Source: an uncultured virus (IMG/VR IMGVR_UViG_3300035428_000406) (Duplodnaviria; Heunggongvirae; Uroviricota; Caudoviricetes). From it: 64,000 nt of DNA. This document shows positions 19,101-42,911 of this stretch, in pieces (the stretch's first letter is position 1; the number at the start of each line of letters is the position of its first letter). The stretch lies in the IMG/VR virus record IMGVR_UViG_3300035428_000406; one strand, written 5' to 3'. Made by a program: the position numbers and the translations under genes. The notes beneath the pieces were generated by a model, which had not been told where the DNA came from, searched no databases, and saw nothing but the letters and a program-made list of their open reading frames with translations.

Positions 19101-21861
19101 CGCCTACCTGTTTGAAAACCGCATGAGCAGTATGAATGCCGGAGAACAACACGAATACTTCCAACGCTATATGCAGCCGCTTCTGCAAGAGATTGGCCAC
19201 ATAGCCGGAGCAAACAAGCGCAAACGCAGGGAACTGACCGACTACATCATGGCCAAGCATGGTCTTGAGCGCAACGAATATATGCGCAACGAGGCGGCCG
19301 CCAACGGCGAGGAAACCGACCGCGACTTTGCCGGACTTATCGGGCTGACAGGTGAAGCCGATTGGCAGAGCGCAGAAGATACTGCACGGCAGTGGGTTGA
19401 CGACTACGAAGCCATGTATGACACAGCACCACTGTGGGAAGCTATCAACAAAGCGACAAAGGCCACACTCGAAAAAGTGTATATTTCAGGTATCATCAGT
19501 AAGGAGACATACGAGAAGATACTTGGAATGTATAACTACTATGTTCCTCTGCGCGGTTGGAATGAGAAAACGAGCGACGAGGTGTATGGCTACCTGACAA
19601 GTAAAGACGGCCCACTCGGTGGCAGTATCATGAAAAAGGCAGAAGGCCGTGAGAGTATGGCCGACGATCCTATTGCCACAATCGGCATGATGGCCGACGA
19701 CGCAATCCGTCAGGGCAACCGCAACCTTATGAAACAGCGTTTTCTCAATTTCATACTCAACCACCCCAGTGACGCTGTTAGTGTGCATGACCTGTGGCTC
19801 GAATACAACGACGTTACCGGCGAGTGGGTTCCTGTCTTTGCAGACGTTGAAGAAACCGATACCGCCGACGTGGTAGAACAAAAGGTTAAGGACTTCGAGG
19901 AGCGCATGGAAGCATTACGCAACGCCGAGCCTGACAAGTATAAGAGAGGCCGCGAGGCACAGCACATACCGTACAAGGTTGTGCGTGGCAATCTCCGCGA
20001 ACATCAGATACTCATCAAGCGCAATGGCCGTACTTCCGTCGTTACCATAAACGGTAATCCGAGAGCGGCACAAGCAATCAACGGCCTTACCAATCCCGAC
20101 GTAGATCAGAATGGTATTGTCGGCAATATGTTGAAAGCCGGTACTTGGGTTAATCGTCAACTCTCGGCATTTTACACCACTCGTAACCCTGACTTTGTTG
20201 TAGGCAACTTCTTCCGCGATATGTTGTACTCCAACTGTATGACATGGGTAAAGGAAAGTCCGCGATACGCTCGACGCTTCCACAAGAATTTTGCTCGTGT
20301 AAATCCTATCGTAATGCGCCGTCTTCTTGGCAAGTGGGAGAAAGGCACACTTGATATGAGCAATCATATTGAGAACCTGTTCTATCAATTTATGAAGAAT
20401 GGTGGCGAGACCGGCTATACTAACGTCCGCGACATCGAGGGACACAAGAGAGCTGTCGCAGCCGAACTGAAGAAACAAAGTAGCACAGGCCGCCGAGTGT
20501 GGACCGCACTCGGTATGCAGTTAGACCTGCTCAACCGTGCCGCGGAGAACTGCGCCCGCTTCGCCGCTTTTGTTACCTCTCGTGACTTTGGCCGCAACAT
20601 CGACCGAGCAATCTATGACGCAAAGGAAATAAGTGTCAACTTCAACAAGAAAGGCAGTGGCGGCAAAATGGTTAACGCCACCGGCCAAACCAAACTCGGC
20701 AAGACGGGTGCATATCTTAGCGGTGGTGGCCGTCTCCTGTATGTGTTCTGGAATGCCGGTATTCAGGGTATGACCAACTTCGGCCGTCAGGCAAAATTGC
20801 ACCCGGCAAAATTCTCCGTGGGAGCTACGGCCTTGTTCACACTCGGCTATGTTATTCCCATGCTTGCCCAAATGGTAGGCGGTGGAGACGGTGACGATGA
20901 CGACAAGAACGCATATTACAACCTGCCTGAATACGTTCGTCGTTCAAACATCTGCTTCTATGCCGGCGACCAATGGATAACGATCCCTCTACCTATTGAG
21001 TATCGTGCCATGTACGGTATGGGAGAGCTTGCGCACGGTGTAATAAGCGGCAACGAGCGTTACAGCAATTCCGAACTTGCCCGCCAAATGACATCGCAAG
21101 TATCGCAGATTTTCCCGATAGATATGCTTGAAGGTGGAGGCGGTGTTTCTCCATTCATACCGAGTGCGGCCAAACCGTTTACCGAAGCCTACATCATGAA
21201 TAAGGGTTGGACAGGCTTACCCGTCTACAAGGATACTCCATACAACAAGAATATGCCTGAATGGACGAAAGCCTATGCAAGTGCCGACAAACATCTTGTG
21301 GACTTTGCCAAGTGGCTAAACGAGACATCAGGCGGCGACGACTTCAAGAAAGGCTCAATTGACATTAACCCTGCCAAGATTGAGTATCTACTCAACGGTA
21401 CTTTCGGCGGTCTGTTTACTTTCCCTAACAAGGTGAAGAAGTCCGCAGAGACGGCCTTTGGCGATCGAGATTTTGAGTGGCGAAATATGCCGATTGCCAA
21501 CCGCCTTATCAAGTCAGGCGATGAGCGTACTGCAAACCGCAAGCTCCAAAACGAGTATTTCAAGTACAAGAAAGAGTATGAAGAAATCGGGGAGCGTATG
21601 CGCAAGTATGAGAACGCCGACGAACAGGGCATAATGGGCTATGCCGAGAAGATAGACTTTTTAGAAAATTCTCCTGAATACGCTCGTTGGGAAATTTTCG
21701 ATGAGTTTAAGGCAGACCTCGACTCGTACAGAGAAGACCTCGCAATCGAGACTGACGTGGAAGAACGCAAGCGTATTGAGGCGGAAATGTACGCTGTAAT
21801 GCGTGAACTTATTAACGCACTCCACAACCCGGAAGCATACCGTAATAGCGAACAGGAATAG
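4147..21861 (+). CDS. Giant polyvalent DarB-like protein (5904 aa)
   Basis: ParB-like GAPSVNSRGEVIQGNNR (~8650); pyrophosphatase-like YGYIRGTESVDGDHIDVF (~10540); MTase EPSAGNG (12745) and NPPF (12919); Strawberry-notch-like SF2 helicase GDMTGVGKGRQ (13981), DESH (14470), QMRGRIDRSGQ; HEAVAH peptidase motif (18439); LPD38-like C-terminus. Confidence 0.85.
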   Translation: MATDNKRKLYDALSQDFDMGSYEQFCADLNDEGKRRKLYDATSQDYDLGTWDSFSQQLGYGQAAAPVPERPAAPVDTPVSSTSPKPTEYFKLRRGGKDFTVSTDEVNAAGGLSSWAQAHPGAPIRVYMQGKKEDGTDFDGHVDLSVAHDRRKRRGYKYTTTSNAIEDKPWQPTEQEKIAMAHQLHQMQAQSDAMFAENRERMENVSEYYRGNRGLGFHTVEGKPVFNPQTGQMEKTYLTPMGDRTTNKAAADMSTFNFRQAMAAADMSVGAQIRRAEAELAELRKQFEDSKSRVHDEWTEDYEKNDAPLAAVLAANTYVPRQTSDKENSALRVAIRQREEQLKNLYEERDRQIGKDVGFWRGFGRIVSDSRTWDFGTGDLLDAMTMLNADQYSAPNATEGEKRAGQEMLKAAYDAQQTEQMFGENASFWNRAGVMTGYMPSFMLDFALTGGGFEVVNVAGKAAARGSAKLIGEAAIKEMTELGVKAYAKRYGLRGVGRMAENWTIKALGTTADELLIRAPLMTNTIQAGKTAADIIDRKLGDVQVDANGNYNFANDKTWGSAVWQGEANAIIENYSEMFGTHLDVVGPALVKALSKTYGGKRISGMLARANASSYGQILATTRKHFERLGVSDYFGEVGEEYYGQLWRTMLNLEDAYTNEPVYDAEGNQVLDAEGNPVYKRKNLLFTGQFHGDIWGGMALSMGLMGAGKYTISGIAYGSMKHQVNVADRVAAEIFTPERWEPIREIIDSTTNEDIGTLAESMVNDPNLSDEERAAVMEYMERSLNLRGLNLGAMAQSRGAADEEGVEIPTPVEMDMDNEFSQSYIDGYEASSPQEMADAQNMYEYQRQRAESMFEPSVLESLDSNPVATLMDMSQTGLYSQEEIDAARDYINAKTVRDGILQRVNDNIDEQIAQSDAMINARVNPASGMIQPAVMGLDDRQVYVVGGSLSINPDGTIDREASDESVVVRDAVTGEVEFVDPRSIVSAGEAIDPEMEKALAVDNIRQQAAQAAADALNGTLAFNPGDVVQINDGGGVVQVTVLGPIVDEESGMPIEGQVMVQFPNGQQTAFAKEQLQAFADAANLERINEFEQQRGAERAQQQATEAEAMRPQFALNDEFTILNDNGTPIRGSITAELDEDGTVEIHTEEPLNGNHVNRLTPAELEEMFDTYNGLPVSLPVPEIEKTVPNLDEMPENAGQNGEISPETVPNPDVTAEAEPQQSALSRVPVDEQGQRNYLDTDADTAYDAFVELSEGDEALAAEVIADYVEEAEDDFKAAEKALNKTKEGKPEKRKKGDPAPTDEERVAIKKAAKQALAEAQAIRDRAKANLDHWKKIAGTKQRREADRRSAEDAEARRRAAERAAEEARLKAEREEAERIEREALNGVPDWNVDTPADARARGYRRNGPQKVDRPEIIDNHAIGNSIEVKFGDDVMPTGNIAIIEASQLQPSHRYGQRNPAHFLDEAQPKERKDAASRFAAAKIAETMRPEEITSSVTAFTGAPSVNSRGEVIQGNNRGEALRLMYEGYADSAAKYKQYLIDHAAEFGLTPEAIEAFEQPVLVNMLDVSDENAITLGQYVAQDTESGGIERIKPKNAVQKMGNKIRSFANLLLRSADDEATFAQLVDSNGVEVLKWMNQQGFITNTQYASAFDSRGNLTAEAANDLKGIMYQSIFTGGSTRLEEMFNKMPAKAQRAILATAFRDYDSAFADRMINEIQQSIIAFDALMGYEAFREATNAEATQNAVEAWKLQFAFDDVSGEPYLPSETFSNFALTLAAMYKGHTQRHIQSVFNMMYDIVQGTEQDNLFEAADKTPKPLAEAIHRVLNLEYQPIVKPTTNNGTNGSAVLDVDSEDGQDGRTGSSGNTDGAEQNPQSGEPTDSGTGAAGDSRQGGEVANEEGVFTPEEIEALSHATFTNTESGQTIKLTGHVIMPDGRAAFKGNMNNEHGSQGRFMHNLIRKLLDSPSWTTDAVMPSAAQESEQHDFDDLDNSALAERIDVSDDDWTEGEDQTPTYKRTITIDGKHQVIQIDEPDGNGFYIGSRFEYQGEHFGSLTEVIDHIDKQAQLAANIAEAEAEVNTDPTPGQKEAGNYKKGHVQVGTFDVTIENPRGSIRRGTDANGKEWQTEMKNTYGYIRGTESVDGDHIDVFLAENIDEWNGRRVFIVDQYNEDGTFDEHKVMLGFNDKADAVIAYQSNYEDGWMRKRRIVVNSVIIEDFEKWIESSHRKTKPFADYTISQRGETEEVGGSSNEDNQDSNGLIKLRELLTSKGMNSDGVANVETVVKTLAKQLSGNLRLRSILDSNGYDWQKEEAAMNLVGDLMNDRMLSGAEETIDILFKSEPYNEAIRTAIAHEALNILIDQDNIAIGNSTTQSNGYTISAKPYTNKQQKTLDTYLVTFERELSKEEKKAMSATARSDFKGWYDKETGGFMLRSREDAEAFAQKYNITDESPLSVDDMRPAEAAVEQTSTEQAKEDVAEDDNEKPVNPSGNRIVTDEQYADYLARFKKKLGGQLNMGIDPEILQLGAMMAVYHIEKGTRKFAAYVKAMIHDLGEMSDKVPYQYLKGFYKNAHNMLEFDAPDIAKEMDSDEVVNATDVAAIVSGHIDAIATAEMVTAEQQAEAERSEAERKLKEERNKRRTNADGSTTTTINEGGTEIEITEGDFIPGVLPTLDTEKKPSVKKKPGKAKPKPTTDDGLFDTVEDDATVAPTIAVPEQRPAADLIGDSAAYQEREAQTVELVEEIGGVIENRVDMLQLDSESVKPLTMTDVKKMAAKYPALKDISDTDLQELVELAMTQLTRSEALVNIDSTAEQQRSAYDRIVNLYQIQPSLNARDSERLIKQQYSTPTPFGFVMGQFVRAGGKAVGSMLEPSAGNGALTITVHPSVVHVNDIDDARLANLRKLGYGQVTAQDALLPFNGDKVDVVMTNPPFGTVTEKVYDGIFRVSSLEGQMAINALEQMKDDGRAAIVIGGNTSYRTNGSMNPKDAAFFGYLYSHYNVTDVINISGKALYSRNGTGYDVRMILIDGRKTGEFQRVYPPVKAKARAEQVTTFDELYKRVQDDIQQIQQMGRQSADVQRDPETAADGTAGAPVRSGNNRPNAGAGQRPGTTSNAVRDTPRTDSGQSTPTNDSQRPVGVDNADAGNAGSTDNVPQPKPQQPRSVGSGSTQDGTGRSGSDGRGATSSRPDRGAERLEVKPDLTTEKVPYPNQSDNGFTLMSVVPAAQATVLQKSLGEIGDVDQYLVDELGYSSKDELYKYLAAEQIDSVALAIHQMNKGNAFIIGDMTGVGKGRQGAALIRYAVKQGKVPIYFTQKPTLYTDNYRDLADIGSSDLRPFIIASNAKDANIVDADGNIVHKLPSKKEQERVYNYIMEHGTLPDEYDYVLTTYDQIKNGTADYAQNEDGTWAIGARKLPKNSKGYTTADHNGQTRRDALARLAEGNIAILDESHTVGGDSGCGRYMQMLTSQAGGVTFLSATFAKRADNMPIYAQRTAIAEAGVKASELIEAIMKGGVTLQEIMSKQLVESGQMIRRERSFEGVTIDWLSVEEETNRRQREQFNEVANIFNAIRNFQDDYITPIIDAKNEAAAEFGATVGHTQGTKDLGVKNVPFASKMYNLVNQLLFALKVDAVADRVVENLRNGYKPVISFTNTMEGFLSSAPKGVAMDDVPNFSLTLMRALDGVMRFTEKDADENSEGGTISLSDLSAEGQNAYNAIREKIMNLSADLPISPMDAIRMKIEEAGYSVAEITGRTMQLNRTEDGRYIVEARKDRDKKAAMRDFNSGKLDVLMINKSGSTGISLHASSKFEDRRPRVMVFAQFQSDINDEVQMRGRIDRSGQVTRGRYEYIMSTIPAEQRIQMMFKAKLKSLDANTTSSQKSKFNEMEIVDYLNKYGDEVVWEYMKEHPELAERLGDPLNMLQEKNDEDGPRTSDKEDTSKKSGCAGKISRYLAFLSVEEQDEIFREITEAYRVKIQLLDDAGENDLEITTMPLRADTKRKQIWHDGENPGSGNAFADNTYVEEVEVDVLKKPMKRSEIAEATRKFMGEHYAELNGSVDWQHYIRTKGDEIELFFQAKANEAVGKLREAGEARIAKAREKAVSSATKARGRGENNFTDEEIQSLADTVANEERLKEEQKQRKRHEEIMAVKNRILSLLNSLRAEKIYVVPQDLKQGTAEMFSQTFGTFVGFKFNKSYTLGSSTAIFATLDGRRKVELALSDSAINTIMGATEIAYRYSPKEINAITMENWDSNVPTQTRQKRYIITGNLLQALVDTEKGDKTRGNLINYSTIDGETRQGILMGENFKLTDLRNSAPLSSRLAQIREGKAIVSENGDVQIEREMYDWRHRGEYELRVPKSKQRGGIYTMHPDLLKLVDGHNFITKGNSMVAYVAEADIAKVVDMLSRAPFNLTVLQESKLSDVSADEAEDDVLCRPVTDKATLEHLNSEPTIKVYRAMQIIDGGLRPPMSARVSGKLREATEIGVWEEAEERPELADDKGKFKLNKGNGKTIDAAYNPYIHTSRSPINDQFSSAWSRPELVTVEVEVPASELTSEYHAEKAKDSVGEKEWKSGPVGRALAKVGQVRKVILSRWSRVVRVVPIEEVADAFAQRLNAHGIEVPFNTVPPALRDALVERGVKIGKPENSNAGKASMPAFEQWILEQERQRMGDGYGAYSDAEVSYANDPISKVMGKNRFSKKRQAEFAARERQRMATRIQELAERMHLNNVEILTDASQLEGKRAKAKGFYNKRTGKITIVIPNNISTIDAEQTLLHEAVAHYGLRQLFGEQFNTFLDNVYDSADESIRRKIAEMAAKNGWDFRTATEEYLAGLAEDTNFSEAQNYSGWWSKIKRLFLSMLESIGFEGFRDKTGVVLTDNELRYILWRSYENLAEPGRYRSILGEAADVAKQSELKVGNYAEQGIEADYAAEGDMYRSGDFSPRDRVFARYAYESMVRSGSYQFKEAVQDSMLGLKKLYQAILGRNTRIEDVPGFENAYLFENRMSSMNAGEQHEYFQRYMQPLLQEIGHIAGANKRKRRELTDYIMAKHGLERNEYMRNEAAANGEETDRDFAGLIGLTGEADWQSAEDTARQWVDDYEAMYDTAPLWEAINKATKATLEKVYISGIISKETYEKILGMYNYYVPLRGWNEKTSDEVYGYLTSKDGPLGGSIMKKAEGRESMADDPIATIGMMADDAIRQGNRNLMKQRFLNFILNHPSDAVSVHDLWLEYNDVTGEWVPVFADVEETDTADVVEQKVKDFEERMEALRNAEPDKYKRGREAQHIPYKVVRGNLREHQILIKRNGRTSVVTINGNPRAAQAINGLTNPDVDQNGIVGNMLKAGTWVNRQLSAFYTTRNPDFVVGNFFRDMLYSNCMTWVKESPRYARRFHKNFARVNPIVMRRLLGKWEKGTLDMSNHIENLFYQFMKNGGETGYTNVRDIEGHKRAVAAELKKQSSTGRRVWTALGMQLDLLNRAAENCARFAAFVTSRDFGRNIDRAIYDAKEISVNFNKKGSGGKMVNATGQTKLGKTGAYLSGGGRLLYVFWNAGIQGMTNFGRQAKLHPAKFSVGATALFTLGYVIPMLAQMVGGGDGDDDDKNAYYNLPEYVRRSNICFYAGDQWITIPLPIEYRAMYGMGELAHGVISGNERYSNSELARQMTSQVSQIFPIDMLEGGGGVSPFIPSAAKPFTEAYIMNKGWTGLPVYKDTPYNKNMPEWTKAYASADKHLVDFAKWLNETSGGDDFKKGSIDINPAKIEYLLNGTFGGLFTFPNKVKKSAETAFGDRDFEWRNMPIANRLIKSGDERTANRKLQNEYFKYKKEYEEIGERMRKYENADEQGIMGYAEKIDFLENSPEYARWEIFDEFKADLDSYREDLAIETDVEERKRIEAEMYAVMRELINALHNPEAYRNSEQE
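9662..9829 (+). CDS. Candidate overprinted 55-aa protein in +1 frame of giant gene
   Basis: A-rich start context CCAACAACTAACAATG; MEQMEVLYWTSIVKMAKMGEQEAVETLTAQNKIRNQENRPTVEQELQAIADKGAK; main frame is a G/S/D linker over the same span. Confidence 0.55.
   Translation: MEQMEVLYWTSIVKMAKMGEQEAVETLTAQNKIRNQENRPTVEQELQAIADKGAK
13319..13723 (+). CDS. Candidate overprinted 134-aa acidic helical protein in +1 frame of giant gene
   Basis: ORF track 13292-13723, ATG at 13319; amphipathic sequence (NDLLEWIMQTQEMQEALIMF...VEAMDVEQLLLDL); main frame is a G/S/R/D linker between MTase and helicase. Confidence 0.6.
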   Translation: MIYSKFSKWGVSLPMCSETLKQPLTEQRVRLFVQETIVRTQEQGNDPVQQAMQSEIHPGPIADSLHPQMTANDLLEWIMQTQEMQEALIMFRNQSPNSPEASEVEAHKMEQEEVEAMDVEQLLLDLTVAQSDWR

Positions 21862-21897
21862 TTAAACAATGGGTAATGCTTATGTGGTGTATATTTG
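21859..21897 (+). promoter_or_regulatory. Putative late promoter for portal
   Basis: TAGTTAA, 24 nt, TATATTTG. Confidence 0.7.
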
Positions 21898-21931
21898 CGC
21901 CCGTAAGCATTACCCTATAATCCAAAATACA

Positions 21932-23908
21932 ATGTCAACAAATAAGCTACATCGCATGAGCCGTGTGCGTCCACAGAAAATTGAGGACGATATGGATACT
22001 GTTGCCACTTCAAAGCGACGTGGCGACAGGCGTGCGTTTGATGTGCTAATGGAAGCGCAGCACCATTGGAACAATATGGACCAATTCCGGCGCGACCGTG
22101 AGCGCAATAAACGTTATTGCTACGGCGACCAGTGGAGAGATATAATCGAAGTGGACGGTTGCCAAATGACCGAAGAAGCATACATCGCCAAGCAGGGCAA
22201 TGTTCCCCTTAAAAATAACTTGATACGTCGCCTTGTGCGAAATGTGCTGGGTGTTTACCGCAGTCAGGCCAAAGAACCGACCTGTTATGCCCGTGACCGC
22301 GACGAGCAGAAACTTGGCGAGACCATGACCACAATATTGCAGTGCAATATGCAGCTAAACCGTATGACCGAGGTTTACGCTCGCACTATGGAAGAATTCT
22401 TGATTGGCGGTCTTATCGTACATCGCAAATCGTACAGTTGGCGTAATGAGAAAATGGACTGTTGGACTGATTATGTCAATCCCAACAATTTCTTTATCGA
22501 CAACAATATGCGCGACTTTCGAGGTTGGGACGTGTCTTTCCTCGGCGAAGTACACGATGTGTCTTTTGAAACTCTGTGTGCGCAGTTTGCGGAGTCGCCC
22601 GAAGATTACCGACGCTTCAAGGAGATATACACCTTTGCCCACAATAAGCAGTACATCGCCAACTATGCAGAGCGTTTTGGCTACTCGCGTCTCGAAAACT
22701 TCGACTTCTTATTCACAAGCGACCCAACACGTTGCAGAGTTATTGAAGTGTGGCGCAAGGAAGCCAAACCCCGCTATCGCTGTCACGACCTCAACAACGG
22801 CGATGTTTATAAAATCGACGTAGAAGATTATGACGAAATGGTTGGCAACATCAACAAGGAGCGTCTTATGCGAGGACGAGCCGCCGGTATGCCTGACGAT
22901 GAAATACCGCTGATACAGGCTACATGGATGATAGACCACTATTGGTACTACTACTATCTTACACCGTTCGGCCATATTCTTAAAGAGGGCGAAACACCAT
23001 ACGAGCACAAGAGTCACCCCTATGTCTTCAAGGCGTACCCATTTATCGACGGCGAAATACACAGCTTCGTGGCCGATGTGATAGATCAGCAGCGTTATAC
23101 CAACCGCCTTATCACGCTCTACGACTTCATTATGAGGGCAAGCGCAAAAGGCGTGCTCCTTTTCCCTGAAGGCTGTGAGCCGGACAATATGAGTATGGAG
23201 GATATTGCCGACGAATGGGGTAAATTTGACGGCATTGTCTACTACAAGCCAAAGCCCGGTGTTGCTGTGCCTCAACAGATAGCCAACAACTCGACGCAAA
23301 TCGGCATCACAGAATTGCTGAATCTACAACTGAAATTCTTTGAAGATATTTCAGGTGTGAACGGAGCATTGCAGGGCAAGCCCGGATATGCCAACCAAAG
23401 TGCCGCGCTCTATAATCAGCAGACGCAAAATGCTACCACGTCGTTGCTTGACTTGCTCGATAGCTTCAGTTACTTTGTCAAGGACGGCGCGATTAAGGAC
23501 GTGAAGAACATGCAGCAGTTCTATGACACCAAGCGCATATTCAACATCGTAGGCAAAAATGCGTGGGTTGAGTATGACCCCAAGACAATACGCGACGTTG
23601 ACTTTGACCTCTCTATTGTCGAAAGCACAAACACGCCGGCCTTCCGACAAATGGCCAACGATATACTTATGCAGTTATGGCAATCACAGGCAATATCGGT
23701 TGAGCAACTTCTGGAACATGGAGACTTCCCGTTTGCCGACGACCTGTTGCAGTCTATCCGCAGTCAAAAGGAACAACTCGAACAGGGTCAGATACCTGAA
23801 GCCATGTCGCCGCAATTACAACAGCAGATACAGGCCGGAGCCAATATGCAGAATGTTCAGGCCGCACGTCAAATGCTGATGAACCCACAGCCGAGAGCAG
23901 CCGCATAA
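21932..23908 (+). CDS. Portal protein (P22-like podovirus type)
   Basis: ~660 aa; YCYGDQW, NNLIRRLVRNVLG, DQQRYTNRL, EDISGVNGALQG motifs and Gln-rich C-terminus; start set at MSTNKL after the promoter. Confidence 0.8.
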   Translation: MSTNKLHRMSRVRPQKIEDDMDTVATSKRRGDRRAFDVLMEAQHHWNNMDQFRRDRERNKRYCYGDQWRDIIEVDGCQMTEEAYIAKQGNVPLKNNLIRRLVRNVLGVYRSQAKEPTCYARDRDEQKLGETMTTILQCNMQLNRMTEVYARTMEEFLIGGLIVHRKSYSWRNEKMDCWTDYVNPNNFFIDNNMRDFRGWDVSFLGEVHDVSFETLCAQFAESPEDYRRFKEIYTFAHNKQYIANYAERFGYSRLENFDFLFTSDPTRCRVIEVWRKEAKPRYRCHDLNNGDVYKIDVEDYDEMVGNINKERLMRGRAAGMPDDEIPLIQATWMIDHYWYYYYLTPFGHILKEGETPYEHKSHPYVFKAYPFIDGEIHSFVADVIDQQRYTNRLITLYDFIMRASAKGVLLFPEGCEPDNMSMEDIADEWGKFDGIVYYKPKPGVAVPQQIANNSTQIGITELLNLQLKFFEDISGVNGALQGKPGYANQSAALYNQQTQNATTSLLDLLDSFSYFVKDGAIKDVKNMQQFYDTKRIFNIVGKNAWVEYDPKTIRDVDFDLSIVESTNTPAFRQMANDILMQLWQSQAISVEQLLEHGDFPFADDLLQSIRSQKEQLEQGQIPEAMSPQLQQQIQAGANMQNVQAARQMLMNPQPRAAA

Positions 23909-24504: not shown

Positions 24505-26613
24505 TTAAAATGTGGCCGCAGAAATAGGCTTACGGCGGCTGCGGTTAAATTTCTTTTGAACAGGTATAATCTTCGGCACGTCCATTTCATAGAAGCAGAT
24601 GTGCAGACCGATTGCTCGTGTCATCAGCAAGTCGTCATGCTTACCAACGATAGCACCGAAAGAGCCATTTTTACGCTTCTCATAGAAATTGTACTCGGCA
24701 AGACAACGCTCATCGCGCTCGACATACATAGCTTCTCTGATAACCTTAACGAGTGTTGAAATAATCATCGGCTTTGTTGACACATTGGTGTGGAAACCGT
24801 AGCGTTTGGGCGCGCCCTCGACAATAGCTTCCTCTGGTTGCTTGCGCTCATACAGGTTAGGATATACGTCCTTTACCTGATTGAGAATAAACTGTGATTG
24901 GTCGCCGTCAACGTCACGCTCCTTATCGTGTGTCTCAAGAGTATTGCTCTCAATAACGAGCAGAGAATTGTCGTAGTAGGCAGCTATCTGCGCCGCTTTC
25001 CATGCCAACAAGTCAATATCTATATGCCCGTACCATTGAGCCACAACGACAGGTTTGCCGCCCTCGGACATAAACAACCGGTCGAAAACAACGATAACAG
25101 ACCAGTCGGCCTTATGTGAACGACCGCCGACATCGACGACGGTAAGGTAGCGGTCAGTCACTCTTTCTTCCGGGTCAATTTCAGGCTGCGCCCATATCCA
25201 TAACAGCCCCTGCCGGTCCTCGCGGAAACGAAGATTTTGCAGAGCCTTTTTGCCCTCATCAAAGTCGGCATACACATCGCCGACTTGTAATGGCGGCTTA
25301 CAGGTTGCTTTAAGGGCCTCGACGCGATATTTGTCGAACACACGAGTGCCGGAGTGAACGAAAGCCTCAACATCATCAGACGGATATTCTGAAGCCATGA
25401 TAGCGTGTCCATTCGACTTGGCACGTTCACGGATATACCAATTTATCGCTTCAAGCGTTGCGCCTTTCTCCCACAGCCACCAAAGATAGCGACCACACTC
25501 CTCACGTTCCGATTCGGCGTTGCTATTTTCGCGGTTATCGTAAAGCCACCCGGCAAAGTCACGCCTTTGCCCGTCGTCGTCGAAGTCGAGTGAATATTGC
25601 TCAATATCAAACCACGAAACAAACATAGCTTCAAATTGAGACTTGCCAGTCTTTGCGGCATCGTATTCAATCTGAAAGAAGTTGCCCGTGCCATTGGCCG
25701 TAGACTCATACACAATCATGGTGTAAGGTTTATACAGCACACCCGAACATGCAGAGCGCACAATATCTTCAGGCGATTTCTTCTCGGTCTTTTCCCATAT
25801 ACCGACCTCGGAGCAGTGAACGAGGTTGTAGTCACCGCCACGACAGGAGTCAGGATTTTTGGCAGTACCAATCTTTATTTTGCAGTTACGCTGTGGCACT
25901 GAATGAATAAGACCCGACATACCGACACCGACAAGTTTAGGCTCGTTCTCGTCGTAGTCAGCACCTAACTTGTAGAGCATATCAACCGGGTATCGGTCGA
26001 GCATACGGTTAAACATGTCGCGAATTTCATCAGAGCCTGATGTTTGGTGGGCGATGATTAGAGAGTTGAGACCGACACGATGAACGAGCTGCAACCATGC
26101 CATATACAACTGCGACGTCGTAGAGCCACCCCACTGACGCGCTTTTAACAGGATAAGGCGTATCGGTTTACCGGCAATTCGCTTTTCCTCAAGTCGTTCG
26201 ACAAATCGACGCTGTGGTCTTGTCAAGCGAAACAGTACGTCCTCGCCGCCACCCTTATTCTTAATCCACACATAAGTAGCCGCCCAAAACGGGAAGTCAT
26301 GCCGAGAGCGTATGCGCACAAATTGTTCGACGACTTTAAGACGGTCAGCCTCATAATCTTCTTCGGCGTCATACTCCATGCCAAGCGTATCACACAGGAA
26401 CGCTTCAAGAGAGCCAGCGGCTATTAGCTGACGCACGAGCGGCACTTTGCTCATGGTATCAGGAAGCCATTGACGTTTAATCGGGAAGTCCTCAATCACA
26501 CACTCGAAGCGAGAGCCAACAGAGCCTTTGCCGGTTATAGGATTGAACGGAGCGTGAATTTCATCTAACCGCTCCTGATTTATTTTGAGAATTGCCGCTA
26601 CTTCTTTCTGCAT
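24505..26613 (-). CDS. terL: Terminase large subunit
   Basis: Walker A LLKARQWGGST, Walker B VHCSEVG, coupling motif YESTANG, nuclease VVDVGG and HDDLLM; start set at MQKEVAA. Confidence 0.9.
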   Translation of the reverse strand: MQKEVAAILKINQERLDEIHAPFNPITGKGSVGSRFECVIEDFPIKRQWLPDTMSKVPLVRQLIAAGSLEAFLCDTLGMEYDAEEDYEADRLKVVEQFVRIRSRHDFPFWAATYVWIKNKGGGEDVLFRLTRPQRRFVERLEEKRIAGKPIRLILLKARQWGGSTTSQLYMAWLQLVHRVGLNSLIIAHQTSGSDEIRDMFNRMLDRYPVDMLYKLGADYDENEPKLVGVGMSGLIHSVPQRNCKIKIGTAKNPDSCRGGDYNLVHCSEVGIWEKTEKKSPEDIVRSACSGVLYKPYTMIVYESTANGTGNFFQIEYDAAKTGKSQFEAMFVSWFDIEQYSLDFDDDGQRRDFAGWLYDNRENSNAESEREECGRYLWWLWEKGATLEAINWYIRERAKSNGHAIMASEYPSDDVEAFVHSGTRVFDKYRVEALKATCKPPLQVGDVYADFDEGKKALQNLRFREDRQGLLWIWAQPEIDPEERVTDRYLTVVDVGGRSHKADWSVIVVFDRLFMSEGGKPVVVAQWYGHIDIDLLAWKAAQIAAYYDNSLLVIESNTLETHDKERDVDGDQSQFILNQVKDVYPNLYERKQPEEAIVEGAPKRYGFHTNVSTKPMIISTLVKVIREAMYVERDERCLAEYNFYEKRKNGSFGAIVGKHDDLLMTRAIGLHICFYEMDVPKIIPVQKKFNRSRRKPISAATF

Positions 26614-27095
26614 GGTATCGGCATATTGATGAAGCCGACAATCAGTCCGGCCACATAACTGTAAAGATGAAGCCACCCATTTACGAGTGGGAACAAGAAA
26701 CCGACAGCGATATACAGGGCCATACACCCGTTGTAGTATAGTTTTCTCTTTACCTGAAAAGCAATTGAGCCAAGCAAAGCGAAGCAAACAGCAGACAGGC
26801 CGACCGTAGGCGTTGAGGATAGAACGAAGTCAGGAGCGGCCACGGCTATAAGATAAGCCGCTATTAACCGCCACCACAAAACATCGTATATAAACAGTAT
26901 CGAGATGAAGCACCAAGCATTTACTGCCGCGTGAAGAAATGAAGCGTGAAAAAACGAGTATCCAAGACGCTGCAAAATATCACAGCCGGTTGACACTCCT
27001 ACTACACTCCAATCAGGCACATAAATAAGTGAGGACAGCAAGATGAATACAACAATCAACAACCCCGTAGTTTTCTCGATTTTTCCGCAAACCAT
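26598..27095 (-). CDS. Rhomboid-family intramembrane serine protease
   Basis: Multiple TM segments; FFHASFLHAAVN (HxxxxHxxxN), GLSA catalytic Ser, WLHLYSYVAG catalytic His. Confidence 0.75.
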   Translation of the reverse strand: MVCGKIEKTTGLLIVVFILLSSLIYVPDWSVVGVSTGCDILQRLGYSFFHASFLHAAVNAWCFISILFIYDVLWWRLIAAYLIAVAAPDFVLSSTPTVGLSAVCFALLGSIAFQVKRKLYYNGCMALYIAVGFLFPLVNGWLHLYSYVAGLIVGFINMPIPCRKK

Positions 27096-27487
27096 TGTTT
27101 TCTCGCTTTTAAGATTAGTACACGCGCACTGCCAGGAGCCAAATAGAATTTAGGAGCGGGCTGTGCGATAACTGCTTCAATGAGCCGAGGTATAGACCAA
27201 TCAGTATTCTTGATACGCAAGGCCACGACACGACGATGTATCTCGAAAAACATCTCACGTTTATTTGGCCTCATATAATGTAGCTTATCGCCTCGCATGA
27301 TACTTGCCACCACGACAGCAGCGCGAGAAGCCGAGACCCAAAAACGAGCGGCCGGCATATCGACAACACTTTTGAATACATCAGGCATGGAAACGTGCTT
27401 ACACGTTTCCAAATATCGGAAATACGCCCTGAGTAAATCGCGCGTCCTTTCCCTGTGATATTCACTTTTGCTGCCAAAGTTTTTCAT
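27056..27487 (-). CDS. Hypothetical basic protein, possible transcription regulator
   Basis: 143 aa, Arg/Lys rich, helical; first gene of the terminase operon. Confidence 0.6.
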   Translation of the reverse strand: MKNFGSKSEYHRERTRDLLRAYFRYLETCKHVSMPDVFKSVVDMPAARFWVSASRAAVVVASIMRGDKLHYMRPNKREMFFEIHRRVVALRIKNTDWSIPRLIEAVIAQPAPKFYLAPGSARVLILKARKQWFAEKSRKLRGC

Positions 27488-27530
27488 TGATTGGGTTTAG
27501 AAGGCTCTTAAATTTGGTTTATTATACTTG

Positions 27531-27538
27531 CAAATTTA
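27531..27538 (-). promoter_or_regulatory. Bacteroidetes -7 element for regulator-rhomboid-terL operon
   Basis: TAAATTTG on minus strand, 44 nt upstream of ATG 27487; lacks the upstream late heptamer. Confidence 0.55.
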
Positions 27539-27553
27539 ATACACAAGTGGTAA

Positions 27554-27592
27554 AAGATAAAAGCTCGACTGTAATATTTGAGCGTATATTTG
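27554..27592 (+). promoter_or_regulatory. Putative late promoter for scaffold/capsid operon
   Basis: AAGATAA, 24 nt, TATATTTG. Confidence 0.7.
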
Positions 27593-27631
27593 CGCTATAA
27601 AAACATAGCAACAACTTATACCCAATCCATT

Positions 27632-28423
27632 ATGGCTGAAACCGAAACAGTTAAAAGCAAACGAGATTTGGCGTTGGAGCGTTTGAGGAGCAAGTATCCT
27701 GAAGAACAATTCGACGACGATGATCAGGTATTTGGTCGAATTAACGACGATTTCGCACAATTCGACAATGAACTTGCAGGCTATAAGGAGCGCGAGGGGA
27801 AATTCTCGGATATGTTTACTTCCGACCCACGTTCAGCTCGGCTGATGATGGGCTGGAAGAACGGAGACGACCCCGCCGTTGCCCTGATACGCCTGTATGG
27901 AGATGACATCAAAGATGCAATCGACGACCCCGAAAAACAGGAAGCTATCGCCGAGGCCAACAAGGAGTACATGGAACGCGTCGCCAAAGAAAAGCAATAC
28001 GAAGAAGAGTACACCGCCAACCTCGCCGAATCGCTGACACTGCTCGAAAAGGCTCAACAGGAACGTGGATTGAGCGACGAACAGATAGACGACGCTATGG
28101 CGTGGTTTATCGGCGTAGCAAAAGACGCAATGATGGGCAAGTTCTCACCTGAAACAATCGAAATGATTATCAAAGCGCAGAACTACGACAACGATGTTGC
28201 ACAGGCCGGAGAAGAAGGCGAGGTGCGAGGCAAGAACACCAAAGTCAAAGAGACCCTGCGCAAGCCTACCCGTGGCGACGGCACAGCCCAACTCGACGGC
28301 AAGAACGGCGGCGGCCGGCGCAGACAGTCCATGCCCGACATGGGAGCGATTGACCGCTATTCCGACGACAACTTGAACATCTTTGAACGTGGCGGCGAGA
28401 AGCGCACACCTATCAAACGATAA
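27632..28423 (+). CDS. Putative capsid scaffolding protein
   Basis: Acidic helical protein immediately upstream of the capsid gene; start MAETETVKSK. Confidence 0.6.
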   Translation: MAETETVKSKRDLALERLRSKYPEEQFDDDDQVFGRINDDFAQFDNELAGYKEREGKFSDMFTSDPRSARLMMGWKNGDDPAVALIRLYGDDIKDAIDDPEKQEAIAEANKEYMERVAKEKQYEEEYTANLAESLTLLEKAQQERGLSDEQIDDAMAWFIGVAKDAMMGKFSPETIEMIIKAQNYDNDVAQAGEEGEVRGKNTKVKETLRKPTRGDGTAQLDGKNGGGRRRQSMPDMGAIDRYSDDNLNIFERGGEKRTPIKR

Positions 28424-28462
28424 TTTAACCCAATATCAATAACCAATTTAATTATCAACTCA

Positions 28463-29899
28463 ATGGAAACAGTTAAAAAGACAACTCGTTTTCTGCTCAG
28501 TTTCATGCTGAGTATGATTGCTCTCGTCGCGGGGGCAAGTTCCGGGGTCTACATGGCCGCTGCAAGCGACCTCCCCGACGCAGGTAAGACAAATGCCGGA
28601 GCCGACGGCACAGGTGGTACTGACGGTATCGCGACCGAAACGCAGGGCCGCGCCGACGGCGACCCCAACTTCTACATGCAGGACATCGACAAGCGCATTA
28701 TCAAAATCCGTCCTATGGCTACGCCTATCGACCAAATTTCACGCTACGCCAAAGCCTCGTCCTGTTCGTCGTTTGAAGTCAAGTATTACAGCGTAGGCAC
28801 ACGCCCTATCTCGTGCAAGACCAGTTCCGCAGTCACCGCGCAGACAACAGGCGCGTCTATCACACTGCCCGTAGACGATGCCAACATGTTCACTCTCGAC
28901 GACACTATCCGCGTTGTCGGTGTGAAAGGCAAGTTTGACAATACCGGTGCTGCATATCCCACTGACAGCGACAACGTGCCTGACCTCGTGCTTTGTGTGT
29001 GCGGCAAGAGTTCAGACACCAATATGCCCACGGTTTATGCAGTCAACGGAAATAAGGACGCCACCACGGGATACGCTACTCTTGTACCTGCAATTCCCAG
29101 TGGTACGACCCTCGTGCGTATGGGTAAGGCTTGTGGCGAGCTTGACGTTCAGACCGGCCGTTTCAACAATATTCCCATGCCTGAAACCCAGTATTGCCAG
29201 AACTTCATGATACAGGTGGAGCAGTCCACTTTCGACAAAATTGCGGCCAAAGAAGTTAATTGGTCGTTCTCCGACATTGAGGAAGACGGCATCTATGATA
29301 TGCGACTCTCGCAGGAGAACACCTACCTGTTCGGCGTGAAGAATGTAATCAAGCACGTTGCCAAAGAGGGCATGAATACATGGTTTACAGGCGGTATTTG
29401 GTACATGGCAGGTAAGGACATCGAAGTAGGCGTATGGGATGAAAAGGCAGGTTGCGCAGTCATCACTGACGACAACCTTGTAGACATCACCAAAGACCTT
29501 TTCGTCGGCACAGGTATCGGCAATAAGCGCAAAATCCTGTTCTGTGGCTCCGATATGCTTTCGACTTTCTCGAAAATCAAGAGCGAGAAATTCCGCCTGA
29601 AAGACACCGTAGAGGTATGGAATCTGAAATTCAAGTCGTGGGACACAGACTTCGGCGAAGTTCTTACTATCCATCATGAGCTTTTCGATGCAAACGGTAT
29701 GAGCGACTGTGGCTTCGCCATGGACCCCGAATATCTCTCGAAGAAGACCCATGTATCGTGGGCGCGCAACGTTCTCGATCTGAAGACTGCCGGTATCCGC
29801 AACACCGACGCCGTGGTAATTCAGGAAGTCGCGTGCCTCTACCTGCGCTACGCAAAGGCGCACGCCCGTATGCGCCTCGCACAGAAGCCCACAGCGTAA
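28463..29899 (+). CDS. Major capsid protein (DUF5309/SU10-like) with hydrophobic N-terminal leader
   Basis: Position after scaffold and before a strong terminator; ETQYCQNF, ENTYLFG, WFTGGI motifs resemble HK97-fold MCPs of this type. Confidence 0.7.
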   Translation: METVKKTTRFLLSFMLSMIALVAGASSGVYMAAASDLPDAGKTNAGADGTGGTDGIATETQGRADGDPNFYMQDIDKRIIKIRPMATPIDQISRYAKASSCSSFEVKYYSVGTRPISCKTSSAVTAQTTGASITLPVDDANMFTLDDTIRVVGVKGKFDNTGAAYPTDSDNVPDLVLCVCGKSSDTNMPTVYAVNGNKDATTGYATLVPAIPSGTTLVRMGKACGELDVQTGRFNNIPMPETQYCQNFMIQVEQSTFDKIAAKEVNWSFSDIEEDGIYDMRLSQENTYLFGVKNVIKHVAKEGMNTWFTGGIWYMAGKDIEVGVWDEKAGCAVITDDNLVDITKDLFVGTGIGNKRKILFCGSDMLSTFSKIKSEKFRLKDTVEVWNLKFKSWDTDFGEVLTIHHELFDANGMSDCGFAMDPEYLSKKTHVSWARNVLDLKTAGIRNTDAVVIQEVACLYLRYAKAHARMRLAQKPTA

Positions 29900-30606: not shown

Positions 30607-31242
30607 ATGATATACAAGTTGACCGAGATAGCGCGTGATGTTCGCATTGCCATAGACCAAAACATGACGAGTGAACAGCTATTAGCGACTGACGACATCG
30701 AAACGCTGTCGCTTGAGGACATCATACGCTCCAAAATCGTTGAGGCCGTGCGTCGCGTCGAAACCGCCGCCCCCGTCCATTTTTTGGAAGAGGGCCACGA
30801 CTTCGGCGACGCAGTGTATTGGGGCGACCTTGAAAGCGGTTGGGTTCTACTGCCCGACGACTTTATGCGCCTGATAGCATTCCGCATGAGCGATTGGGAG
30901 CGCACTGTCTATGCCGCTATCTCGGTTGATGATCCACTGTATGCAAAACAGTCTTCACGCTATAAGGGCATACGCGGCAACGTGCAGAAGCCAGTGTGTG
31001 CTGTCGTCAATCGAGCCGAGGGCAAGGCACTTGAATTCTATTCATGCAATAGCGAGGACGCATTTGTTTCGCGCGCTTCTTACCTACCATACCCTCACAT
31101 AGACGAGGACGACGGCATAGACATCAGCGAAAGGTGCTACACAGCGGTAGTTTATACCGTGGCAGCATTAGTATTAACCACCTACGGCGAAGCTGACAAA
31201 GCGTCGGCTCTAACCGAATTAGCTAAATCAATCTTACAGTAA
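30607..31242 (+). CDS. Putative head-tail adaptor/structural protein
   Basis: 211-aa ORF between capsid and adhesin genes; LPDDFMRL motif; function from position only. Confidence 0.5.
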   Translation: MIYKLTEIARDVRIAIDQNMTSEQLLATDDIETLSLEDIIRSKIVEAVRRVETAAPVHFLEEGHDFGDAVYWGDLESGWVLLPDDFMRLIAFRMSDWERTVYAAISVDDPLYAKQSSRYKGIRGNVQKPVCAVVNRAEGKALEFYSCNSEDAFVSRASYLPYPHIDEDDGIDISERCYTAVVYTVAALVLTTYGEADKASALTELAKSILQ

Positions 31243-34200
31243 TGAGTTCAATCCCAACAAAGCAAATAGACGGTGATGTTGCGGTAGGACGCAATGTCAG
31301 CGTAGGCGGTAAGGCTACCGTCCGGGGCTCTGCTACTATCGGCCATAACCTGAAAGTGGAAGGTTGGCTTGACGCGCCCAACGTGAAAGGCCCCAACAAG
31401 GGGCTATTCAAAACGGCGGTGCAACTGCGTGAAGCATATCCCAATCCGCATGAAGGTTGGTGGGCTTTAGTCGGTGACACTCTGCCCGCACAGGTCTACA
31501 TGGCCAACGGCGGTGCATGGGTAGGACAGACTAATGCCGACGGTACACCAAAACTCGCGGGCAATCCCACTGTGGACTCGTCGGAGTACATGGAAGCCGT
31601 CGAGGAAATGACAGAAGATCTTGAGGCCGTCAAAATCGAAGTCAACCAAAACAAAGAGGATATTCGCAATCTCCGCTCCGGCCAAACCACACAGGGAAAT
31701 CAAATCAACCTGTTGCAGACTGCTGTTGAAACGGCGCAGACACAGGCCAACAAAGGTGTTGCCAACGCTGCCACTGCACAAGCCGGTGTAAACGCCATAA
31801 ACAACAGCAAAGGCAAAGCCAACGGTTTTGCCCCGCTCGACGCTAACGCCAAAGTACCAGCGGCACATCTTCCGGGGTACGTTGATGATGTTGTCGAGTT
31901 CAACGCCTTTGTCGAGGGTGTGACTCCGCAGATGGCTTCAGCCAACAAAAATTCCACCGATGCCGGATGTATGGTGGTATATGATGTAAACTCAAACTGC
32001 TTTTTGCTTGCGGTATCTAACCGCAGCATTGCTTCCGAAACTGACTGGAATGTAGTCCTCAGACCACAGAGGCTTGCTTCAACTCCGTCCACGGCCGTTG
32101 ACAGCGAAGAAGCAACCAAGGTTCAAATTACGGACTATTGGAATATCAAAGATACCGGCATTACACTCATTCCCTCGGCTTTCACGTATTATAACAACTG
32201 GCTCGACGCAGAGGCGTTCGGCACCGTATCAACAAATGGCCGCATACCCGTGGCCGGTAAAATCTACACCTGCACATCGGTCAACACGACATCACGTTGG
32301 AGCGGGTCGGAACTTGTCAAGATAGGCTCTGACCTCGCTCTCGGTCACACTGCAGGGACCGCCTTCCCCGGTGATGAGGGTGCACAACTTCAGGAAAACG
32401 TCAAAAATCAGGAAGAAAACCTGCAATTAAACCGTCGCCGGATTGACAATATCAAAATCCTACCTTTTAACGGTATCTGGGACGGACAGGGGGCTGAGCC
32501 AACAAACGGAATTTTCCTTTGCCCCAGCCCTGACGGCGGTTGGTATTTCCGAGAGTTCGGCAACACCGGCTTCTATGACTTTCCAGAAGAAGACTACAAC
32601 TGCGACCTTCAAGCTAATTCCGGGACGCTATTTCGCCATGAAGATAGCCTATATCGTATCAAGCACGGCGAGATAGAGACATTTGTCACTGACAAAAATC
32701 TTAATGAAGCGACCGACAAAATAAAGAAGCCTCGTACATTCATCAACGCCAATCAGCTTCTCGACTACTCGGCCACCTACACTATCGGCGAAGTTTCCAA
32801 ACTTCTTGAAACGCAGTTCGGCAACCTATTCCACGTCCCCGGCATTGTAATCTCTTTCCGAGGCAAGAACAGTTGGGAGAGCAAGCAGTGGAACGGAGAC
32901 GACTCATTCACTGAAGATAGCGCATGGACCGACTTCGGGGTGAATGGCAACAACATCGGTAACACCGTTAACGTCAACGACGTTTGCGGAGATACTGAAT
33001 ACACTCTTAGTACGGCAATCAAGGCCGTACAGGATAAAGAGGCCGAGAGCGGAATCAAGTATTTCAAGAGTGGTGTGGTGCTGACCTACAAGACCGCAGA
33101 AAAGGATACCAAAGGCGCGCCCGTGTGGGAAGCCTATCAGTTTACCCGCGAAATAGCCGACATCAACCCTGCCGACCTTAAGCCGTGGATACCATTTGGC
33201 GGCGGTGGTAAATCGGAAATCGAGACGAAAGACGACCCTGCGGCCGGAGGTAAAGACGCATTTTCCACCGGCGGTGCATATAAGCATATCCCCCTCAAGT
33301 ACCGTGTGATACAGGACGACGGTACTGTAACCATTCAGCCGATGAATGAGGCCGGCGAAGATATAGGCGAATCCATTACTTTCTTTGCCTCTCAAGGCGG
33401 CGGTGGAGAAGTGTCGGGTACAATCGTTAATATCAAATTTCAAGAGTCGCCGCTTTACGGTGCTGTCGGGAAAGACATCATCGGCCATGCCTGTATCCGA
33501 TCGGTAACACAGTTAGGCGCGACCGAACAGCTCAACTCGATTGTATCGTTAAAGCTCATCGACCGAGACACCAACGTAGTAATACGCGAGTGGACAGTCA
33601 ACACACGCTCATCGGACGAGGACGAATACAATTTTGACATTCCTTTCTCCGGCCTGTTTGACGGTGCTGGTTCTCGCCGTTTCCGCTTGGAAGCTACCGA
33701 CGATACCGACCACACCGGCTACCGCTTCATAACGGTAACTGCCGTTGACGCTACTGTTGAAAGTACGCAGGTGCTTAACTACACATCTGACTATGTTATA
33801 CCCTACGGAAGCAATCGCACTGTAAATGTGCCTCTCTACAAATTTCCGCAGAACGTCAGCGAGAAAGGTATTCAGGCATTTATTGAAATATGGTGGAACG
33901 GAGAATGGCGTCCACTGACCGCCACGCCGCCCACACACTTCGACGCATACAGCAACAGTGCGCAGTTCAACCCTACCAACCTTTTCGGCGGTGGAGAGAA
34001 AATGCAGCATGGCGCATATCCCCTGCGCATACATGGCCGCGACGTGGCATCGGGCGTGACCGGCAACACAATCTATACCGCTGTTATGTGTATCGACCCC
34101 AACAGCAGTGTACCTGTTGTCGCCCTGCGATACAACGACACCGGCGACGGTACTGTCCGACTATACGACCGAATAAAGGTTGAGGTTGCCGCATACAACC

Positions 34201-42365: not shown

Positions 42366-42848
42366 ATGATACTTGAATTAATTGCAGTAACAGCGTCGTG
42401 TCTCATCATGACACTCTACCTGACGGCATACATCAATGCTATCGGTATTCCGGCCTCTATCAGTGCCACCTACTACCACACTGAAAAGAAATGGCTATTT
42501 CCGTCGGCCATATCCCTGACGGGGCTTTGCGCCCTTGTACCTCTGCTTAATCACACGCCGGAGAATTATCAGTTTGTGGCATTTTTCATCGTAGCCGCGG
42601 CTCTATTCGTTGCGGCAGCTCCCGCCTTTCGCGATGAAATGATAGGTAAAGTACATGGCATATCGGCCGCAGTGCTTGGACTGTGCGCCCTCGCATGGCT
42701 CGTACTGACTACCGGCTGTCCGTGGATAGCCATCATAGGTCTATGTGTGGCCGTCCTCGATCGAAAACGCTTCTTGTTTTGGTTTGAAGTCGGCGTGCTC
42801 TACAACTTGTTTTTATCCATTATTACCGTTGTGGCTATGAACGGATAA
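42366..42848 (+). CDS. Multi-pass membrane protein
   Basis: About five hydrophobic segments; GIPASISATYY motif. Confidence 0.7.
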   Translation: MILELIAVTASCLIMTLYLTAYINAIGIPASISATYYHTEKKWLFPSAISLTGLCALVPLLNHTPENYQFVAFFIVAAALFVAAAPAFRDEMIGKVHGISAAVLGLCALAWLVLTTGCPWIAIIGLCVAVLDRKRFLFWFEVGVLYNLFLSIITVVAMNG

Positions 42849-42886
42849 AGTTAACACAGTGGTTTCAAAACCACATTCTATCTTTG
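42848..42886 (+). promoter_or_regulatory. Putative late promoter for lysis cassette
   Basis: AAGTTAA, 24 nt, TATCTTTG. Confidence 0.7.
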
Positions 42887-42911
42887 AACACAAAACCGAC
42901 ATTATCACAAA

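Follow-up and report, generated by a model that had tools for sequence, protein, structure and literature searches.

Why would a tailed phage keep the gene of an intramembrane protease among its head and packaging genes, and is this protease related to the capsid protein encoded close by? The question is raised by a stretch of 64,000 nucleotides from an uncultured virus of the Caudoviricetes (IMG/VR record IMGVR_UViG_3300035428_000406), the whole of which is called the window below. In the usual view, the heads of tailed phages are built from soluble subunits, and precursors, where they are trimmed at all, are cut by soluble proteases within the prohead. A prediction made from the sequence of the window (the original prediction) had proposed that here the major capsid protein (MCP) is tethered to the inner membrane by an N-terminal leader and released by a phage-encoded rhomboid. 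We found that this type of leader, designated type A, and the rhomboid are strictly associated and have been lost together across relatives; therefore, a functional link between them is well supported. Removal of the leader by the rhomboid within the membrane would be the natural mechanism. The features concerned are as follows.

24505-26613, minus strand: terL, large terminase, 702 residues from ATG 26613 (phrog_2, 6.8e-17; phrog_5989, 1.9e-12)
26598-27095, minus strand: phage mini-rhomboid, 165 residues, six transmembrane helices (Pfam, profile, AlphaFold2 (AF2) and Foldseek)
27056-27487, minus strand: terS-like gene, 143 residues, the first gene of the operon (PHROG match phrog_27246, 1.7e-77)
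27632-28423, plus strand: acidic protein of 263 residues just upstream of the MCP (phrog_22323, 4.6e-138, match from residue 19)
28463-29899, plus strand: MCP (Pfam SU10_MCP, PF17236, 5.3e-28, 98.8 bits with a cut-off of 24.1, residues 64-470)
28463-28564, plus strand: type-A leader of the MCP, residues 1-34, conserved (AF2 helix at residues 2-26)
28565-28660, plus strand: acidic, Gly/Thr-rich flexible linker of the MCP, residues 35-66 (AF2 predicted local distance difference test, pLDDT, below 50 at residues 27-67)
28661-29899, plus strand: HK97-fold core of the MCP, residues 67-478 (SU10_MCP and Foldseek)

The product of 26598-27095 is a rhomboid (MEROPS family S54) with intact catalytic residues, and it is predicted to be proteolytically active. 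It carries the motifs H50-x4-H55-x3-N59, G99-L-S101 and H143, with the codons of Ser101 at 26793-26795, His143 at 26667-26669, H55 at 26931-26933 and N59 at 26919-26921. All 33 phage rhomboid homologues compared share H50, H55, N59, P96, G99, S101 and H143 without exception; in a wider rhomboid alignment N59 is replaced in one of the 20 sequences. A profile of the 33 homologues matched GlpG of Haemophilus influenzae (2nr9) over the whole core with an E-value of 5.3e-6. The motifs line up with those of GlpG, where the catalytic Ser is on the fourth transmembrane helix, the catalytic His on the sixth and the His-x3-Asn of the oxyanion region on the second. The AF2 model (pLDDT 92.1, predicted template modelling score 0.87) has the six-helix core fold, and the first 38 ranks of its Foldseek matches (one omitted) were all GlpG or iRhom, with TMq from 0.55 to 0.68 and a probability of 1.00. 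Motifs, profile and fold all agree with the original prediction of a polytopic protein with rhomboid motifs overlapping the terL start. This overlap is 16 nt, given terL ATG 26613, a start placed from the translation of the open reading frame (ORF), from which a 702-residue protein is open; the overlap with the terS-like gene is 40 nt. In the GenBank records of BS-TP4 and BF1-TP2, two cultured temperate Bacteroides phages, the gene is already labelled as a rhomboid.

As predicted, 28463-29899 encodes an HK97-fold major capsid protein of the SU10 type. Besides the Pfam match, Foldseek returned the capsid of Vibrio phage VP1 (9in6_M, 8.7e-21), followed by the capsids of crAss001, SU10 and HK97. 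In the AF2 model, a helix (residues 2-26) is followed by disorder (27-67) and by a folded core that begins at residue 70. The N-terminus reads as originally described, with basic residues, a hydrophobic helix and small residues; its layout is a basic n-region (1-9), a 14-residue hydrophobic helix (10-23), G24, a run of small residues and a Met-Ala-x-Ala end, after which the linker opens with a conserved Leu-Pro-Asp-Ala-Gly motif. The 19-residue Kyte-Doolittle mean peaks at 1.9 (residues 11-29). Weaker segments of this kind are present in two other structural proteins, at the Gly-rich N-terminus of a T7 gp14-like protein (1.67) and inside a protein of 5904 residues (1.65), while the remaining strongly hydrophobic proteins of the window are the rhomboid and two membrane proteins of the lysis cassette.

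Is the leader translated and conserved? ATG 28463 sits in an A/T-rich spacer, 39 nt past the stop of the probable scaffold gene (that of the acidic protein). The G+C content of the preceding 33 nt, counted by hand, is 24% for ATG 28463 compared to 70% for the alternative ATG 28553, a difference of context that had been pointed out in the original prediction. In nine close relatives, the ratio of nonsynonymous to synonymous polymorphism (pN/pS) was 0.17 over codons 1-35 and 0.10 over codons 25-41; the low value over codons 1-35 indicates that translation starts upstream of ATG 28553. The leader was present in 80 of 80 close IMG/VR relatives as well as in relatives down to 37% identity (the relatives viewed were the best 80 of 458 IMG/VR matches and the best 80 of 480 genome matches). 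Throughout this range G24 is invariant, A20 and A32 are nearly invariant, and the hydrophobic core varies in sequence while its character is constant. The best-conserved parts of the region are the small-residue stretch and the Leu-Pro-Asp-Ala-Gly motif. Translation from 28553 and a non-conserved leader had both been named as observations that would speak against a membrane leader; we see purifying selection on the upstream codons in the first case and uniform presence of the leader in the second. An internal start at Met31 (ATG 28553) was considered as the reason for the conserved Met at this position and rejected: several clades have Leu, Ile, Val, Phe or Thr there, and the G+C-rich context and the selection on the upstream codons also tell against it. 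As a minor second start, Met31 is possible.

Does the rhomboid accompany the leader? It was found in 78 of the 80 close IMG/VR loci; the two exceptions are a locus that lacks upstream DNA and L022, which has a truncated remnant. The clade of BF1-TP2 had the rhomboid in 19 of 19 loci. When the scan was seeded by the rhomboid, the capsid gene lay inside the locus in 75 of 80 loci, and a leader was scored in 74 of these 75. The remaining one (L179) was mis-scored due to an over-extended ORF, and it comes from the same contig as the leader-bearing L051. A scan seeded by a capsid clade with 30-40% identity produced 26 loci, among which 24, split between the seed clade and a second clade closer to that of the window, had the type-A leader along with the terS-like/rhomboid pair; the other two had a different leader and no rhomboid. 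The rhomboid gene always directly follows the terS-like gene, and this pairing is kept in distant clades. We also used an even sample of 401 Bacteroidales genomes, 27 of which had the capsid family. The rhomboid was present in all four genomes with the type-A leader, on the same contig at a distance of 1.4 to 17 kb, and was not detected in four leaderless genomes or in one genome with a broken capsid gene. One further genome of this sample combined an odd Gly-rich leader with a match to the rhomboid profile 15 kb away. A leaderless IMG/VR record that was searched whole showed no Pfam rhomboid at E<=0.1.

In Prevotellaceae prophages, the absence of the rhomboid suggested by local searches (+/-10 kb) was overturned by whole-genome profile searches; the local searches had missed the gene because the head genes of these prophages are rearranged. 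Genome-wide, the phage rhomboid was detected in 15 of 15 Prevotellaceae genomes with a leader-bearing capsid gene and in none of six genomes with a leaderless one. With the window terL as a query, intact homologues were found in prophages. Among five leaderless genomes tested, four had kept an intact terL and four the terS-like gene. In three leaderless Prevotellaceae loci, the terS-like gene borders directly on the conserved gene that comes next, at the place where leader-bearing relatives have the rhomboid, and tblastn detected no rhomboid remnant in these three. The leaderless capsid proteins start 4-7 residues before Leu-Pro-Asp-Ala-Gly, which is the leader/linker junction.

Two capsid trees were made for rows with both traits known, the N-terminally truncated L258, L281, L283 and L296, the discordant L022 and L374 (atypical leader) being omitted. 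In the 46-row maximum-likelihood tree, the leader and the rhomboid each changed five times, always jointly; with only three starred independent pairs the test (p=0.25) was not significant. In the 92-row FastTree that included distant clades, we observed seven coincident changes, and all six starred (well-supported) independent pairs were concordant (two-sided sign test, p=0.031). Thus, the co-occurrence that the original prediction had asked for was observed, with the type-A leader and the rhomboid co-present and co-lost across relatives. We argue on two grounds that the rhomboid acts on the type-A leader: it is strictly tied to this single kind of leader, and both have repeatedly disappeared together from head modules that are intact in other respects.

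The same counts bear on a different target. The substrate could be a membrane protein of the host, a factor of lysis or superinfection exclusion, or some other protein of the virion, and the rhomboid would then share with the leader nothing except history. For example, the rhomboid of phage DLP5 is listed as a moron gene (PMC5834331), and the lysis cassette of the window has further membrane proteins to offer. However, the leader and the rhomboid belong to separate genes, 1.3 to about 17 kb apart, that change jointly seven times; each joint loss needs two separate deletions, and the rhomboid gene has a constant place within the terS-like/terL operon. We therefore consider another target very unlikely.

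If the leader is the target, is it removed at all? Scans with Pfam and PHROGs found no prohead protease family (S78, S77, U9, U35 or ClpP-type) among the window ORFs of at least 50 residues, many of which are without a family (the 5904-residue protein was compared with Pfam only); this agrees with the original prediction, in which no soluble prohead protease had been recognised. Together with the separate scaffold-like gene, it resembles the cleavage-free assembly of the P22 type. The leader might then be neither inserted nor removed and might serve as an internal helix of the prohead, similar to a scaffold or a delta domain, with the rhomboid as a chaperone or a holder. The persistence of another leader type (type B, described below) without a dedicated protease would fit as well. 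Conversely, the invariance of the catalytic Ser and His and of the His/Asn pair in all 33 rhomboids argues for catalysis, and the leaderless proteins begin at the leader/linker junction, as if this junction were the mature end. An uncleaved internal helix thus appears highly improbable.

We consider it reasonably probable that the MCP is made as a precursor whose type-A leader is inserted into the membrane and cut by the phage rhomboid, with the capsid protein then freed for proheads. The N-terminal leader of this precursor, resembling a signal-anchor and followed by the flexible linker, would insert into the inner membrane. The six-helix rhomboid, whose gene shares an operon with the terS-like gene and terL, would recognise the weakened outer end of the helix and cut the leader off. 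The mature MCP, starting near Leu-Pro-Asp-Ala-Gly, would be freed to build proheads. Rhomboid substrates such as Spitz and TatA carry small residues at the helix end, and the outer end of the leader is similar. Judging by the basic residues before and the acidic residues after the helix (the positive-inside rule), the leader is predicted to be N-in, while the charged loops of the rhomboid predict an N-in/C-in protein in the orientation of GlpG, with a periplasmic active site. A coupling to packaging, which had been proposed from co-transcription of the rhomboid with terL, may be envisaged; the link between these two genes visible here is the overlap of their reading frames. Since leaderless, rhomboid-less prophages persist, the data suggest that the pair is an accessory layer of control (timing, placement or hiding of the capsid protein) and not a part of the assembly chemistry. 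We propose more tentatively that the tailed phages of a large clade in gut Bacteroidales keep their capsid protein at the inner membrane by means of a cleavable helix, until a virus-encoded intramembrane protease releases it.

Several observations weigh against cleavage of the leader by the rhomboid. The score of the window rhomboid against PF01694 is 22.3 bits, with a gathering cut-off of 22.6 (the homologues of L130 and L137 are above it, at 41.2 and 32.2 bits). In L022, the sole discordant locus among those examined, the type-A leader is kept and the rhomboid is an 88-residue N-terminal remnant at the contig end (408-674, minus strand), which may be due to decay or to an assembly artefact. 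Many of the rhomboid absences rest on incomplete metagenome-assembled genomes. In addition, the predicted topology would place the new capsid N-terminus on the periplasmic side of the membrane, opposite to the cytoplasm where heads are filled. With the leader N-in and the active site periplasmic, a simple model of tethering and release to the cytoplasm is topologically unexplained. A helical hairpin was considered as a solution and rejected, its second arm having just 6-7 residues in type A. The chain of the leader is also predicted to run through the enzyme in the direction reversed with respect to classical type-I substrates; a precedent for a type-II substrate is Drosophila Star, cut by Rhomboid-1 (PMC2950126).

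A further point against it comes from the type-B leaders, found in a large sister capsid clade (L107-L112, L352-L367 and L369) where the terS-like gene runs straight into terL. These leaders have a longer hydrophobic stretch and no linker, are joined directly to the core and end with a conserved Ala-rich motif similar to Val-Ile-Pro-Gly just before it. In the even sample, none of the 17 genomes with a type-B leader had the rhomboid at E<=1e-10, and four type-B IMG/VR records searched whole (G002-G005, with a completeness of 93% for one) had no Pfam rhomboid at E<=0.1. The original prediction had counted leader-bearing MCPs in rhomboid-less phages as evidence against it; such proteins are what we see for the type-B leader and not for the type-A leader.

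Finally, the Ala-x-Ala of the leader suits host signal peptidase I equally well. As read from the sequence, the leader has the layout of a Sec-type signal peptide (basic n-region, hydrophobic h-region, small residues at -3/-1), though its 34 residues exceed the usual length of signal peptides. The tripartite n-h-c organisation is visible, and A32 is nearly invariant, the next residue is variable and position 34 is mostly Ala, in line with the -3/-1 rule. With the cut made by signal peptidase I, the rhomboid could serve a side function that depends on the leader, for example disposal of the leftover leader peptides in the membrane, which would number hundreds per virion; this scheme also predicts the coupling of leader and rhomboid. 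However, type-B leaders would leave the same debris, and yet the rhomboid was in none of the 17 genomes that have them. In the clade of BF1-TP2 the motif is immediately followed by Pro, a residue that disfavours signal peptidase I in this position. Moreover, Sec export of a capsid protein would be biologically senseless and at odds with head assembly in tailed phages, which takes place in the cytoplasm. Cleavage by signal peptidase I is, in our estimate, rather unlikely.

How does cleavage by the phage rhomboid compare with known systems? Among prohead proteases (HK97 gp4 with the delta domain; T4 gp21 with gp23), the likeness is an N-terminal piece of the capsid protein that the precursor has and the functional form lacks. 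Unlike the rhomboid, those enzymes are soluble and packaged in the prohead, and none of the propeptides concerned is a membrane helix. Assembly of T4 heads begins on the inner membrane. With GlpG (Escherichia coli 2ic8 and H. influenzae 2nr9) the phage enzyme shares the fold, the catalytic Ser-His dyad and the His/Asn pair of the second transmembrane helix; it differs by its identity of about 20%, its length of only 165 residues, the lack of a cytoplasmic domain and a short loop L1 without the Trp of the Trp-Arg motif. The rhombosortase/GlyGly-CTERM system is similar in that a minimal dedicated rhomboid co-occurs across genomes with proteins bearing one kind of membrane-helix signal, which is C-terminal and consists of Gly-Gly, a helix and basic residues. 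In the phage, by contrast, the signal is N-terminal, has the mirror order (basic residues, helix, small residues) and belongs to a single substrate. TIGR03902 was the best NCBIfam match of three phage homologues, at 17-29 bits (cut-off 84), and the window rhomboid had no match to it. In the AarA/TatA system of Providencia stuartii, a six-helix rhomboid likewise trims a short N-terminal extension from a few dedicated substrates and thereby activates them (PMC3712462). In TatA, however, which is N-out, the cut falls at the N-terminal end of the helix, while in the phage the hydrophobic helix itself is the extension, predicted to be N-in with the cut motif at its C-terminal end. Also, the proposed phage substrate belongs to a viral shell, and the virus itself encodes the enzyme.

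In our literature search we found no paper linking a phage rhomboid to capsid processing, and the sole other phage rhomboid found in print was the moron gene of DLP5 (PMC5834331). Term searches returned neither 'rhomboid' nor 'mass spectrometry' in the paper on BS-TP4 and BKO1-TP3, supplements aside (PMC12694917), and none of 'phage', 'virus' and 'viral' in the searched text of a 2025 rhomboid review (PMC12615303). New here are the co-loss of leader and rhomboid, the junction starts of the leaderless proteins and the table of the even sample. If true, a membrane leader with a matching phage rhomboid would add a membrane step to head assembly, a route of maturation or control without a counterpart among described tailed phages, which may time head assembly with packaging or hide free capsid protein from host sensors. 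The repeated paired loss indicates a detachable module. The type-B clade would then be a second membrane-linked version of the capsid protein, either independent of proteases or dependent on a host protease. Bacterial-type rhomboids would gain one of the few natural, genetically defined enzyme-substrate pairs, and for the study of intramembrane proteolysis in general, interest lies in the reversed polarity of the substrate and in the puzzle of topology. The pair is directly testable in the cultured phages BS-TP4, BKO1-TP3 and BF1-TP2, and the phage family is common in Bacteroidales of the human gut and the rumen.

The source genome is that of a temperate, podophage-like phage of gut Bacteroidales. 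Among named phages its nearest relatives are three cultured temperate phages of Bacteroides: BS-TP4 and BKO1-TP3, whose capsid proteins share 80% identity with that of the window, and BF1-TP2, with about 47-49%. In all three, the head module has the terS-like, rhomboid and terL genes on one strand, with the scaffold-like and capsid genes diverging from them. The terS-like protein is a putative small terminase by its position; it matched no Pfam or NCBIfam family, and its family alignment shows two repeats of a motif similar to Pro-Ala-x-Arg-Phe-Trp/Tyr-Val-Ser, conserved from type-A through type-B phages. The acidic 263-residue protein is, from its position and composition, a probable scaffolding protein. 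Its ORF opens at TTG 27578, the PHROG match begins at ATG 27632, and the position of the gene is kept in BS-TP4, BKO1-TP3 and BF1-TP2. In the Prevotellaceae prophages L276, L277, L288 and L293, genes of signal-peptide-bearing proteins of ~1900 residues stand directly upstream of the capsid gene, in the usual site of the scaffold gene, and terL and the terS-like/rhomboid pair are 12-30 kb off or on other contigs.

Elsewhere in the window, the sequence of which contains 16 N characters, the following features were found.

2409-2906: T7 gp14-like internal protein
4147-21861, plus strand: polyvalent protein of 5904 residues in a single ORF, with ddrB-ParB-like, inorganic pyrophosphatase, Strawberry-notch-type helicase and LPD38 domains
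21869-23908: P22-type portal
31242-39767, plus strand: tail-region protein of 2841 residues
40174-41847, plus strand: reverse transcriptase, adjoining the tail-region protein
42366-43801, plus strand: lysis cassette, two polytopic membrane proteins followed by an N-acetylmuramoyl-L-alanine amidase

The polyvalent protein is probably an ejected internal virion protein. Recombination and replication genes and an integrase are encoded as well. The homologue of the tail-region gene in BS-TP4, gp14, is described as the target of a diversity-generating retroelement (PMC12694917).

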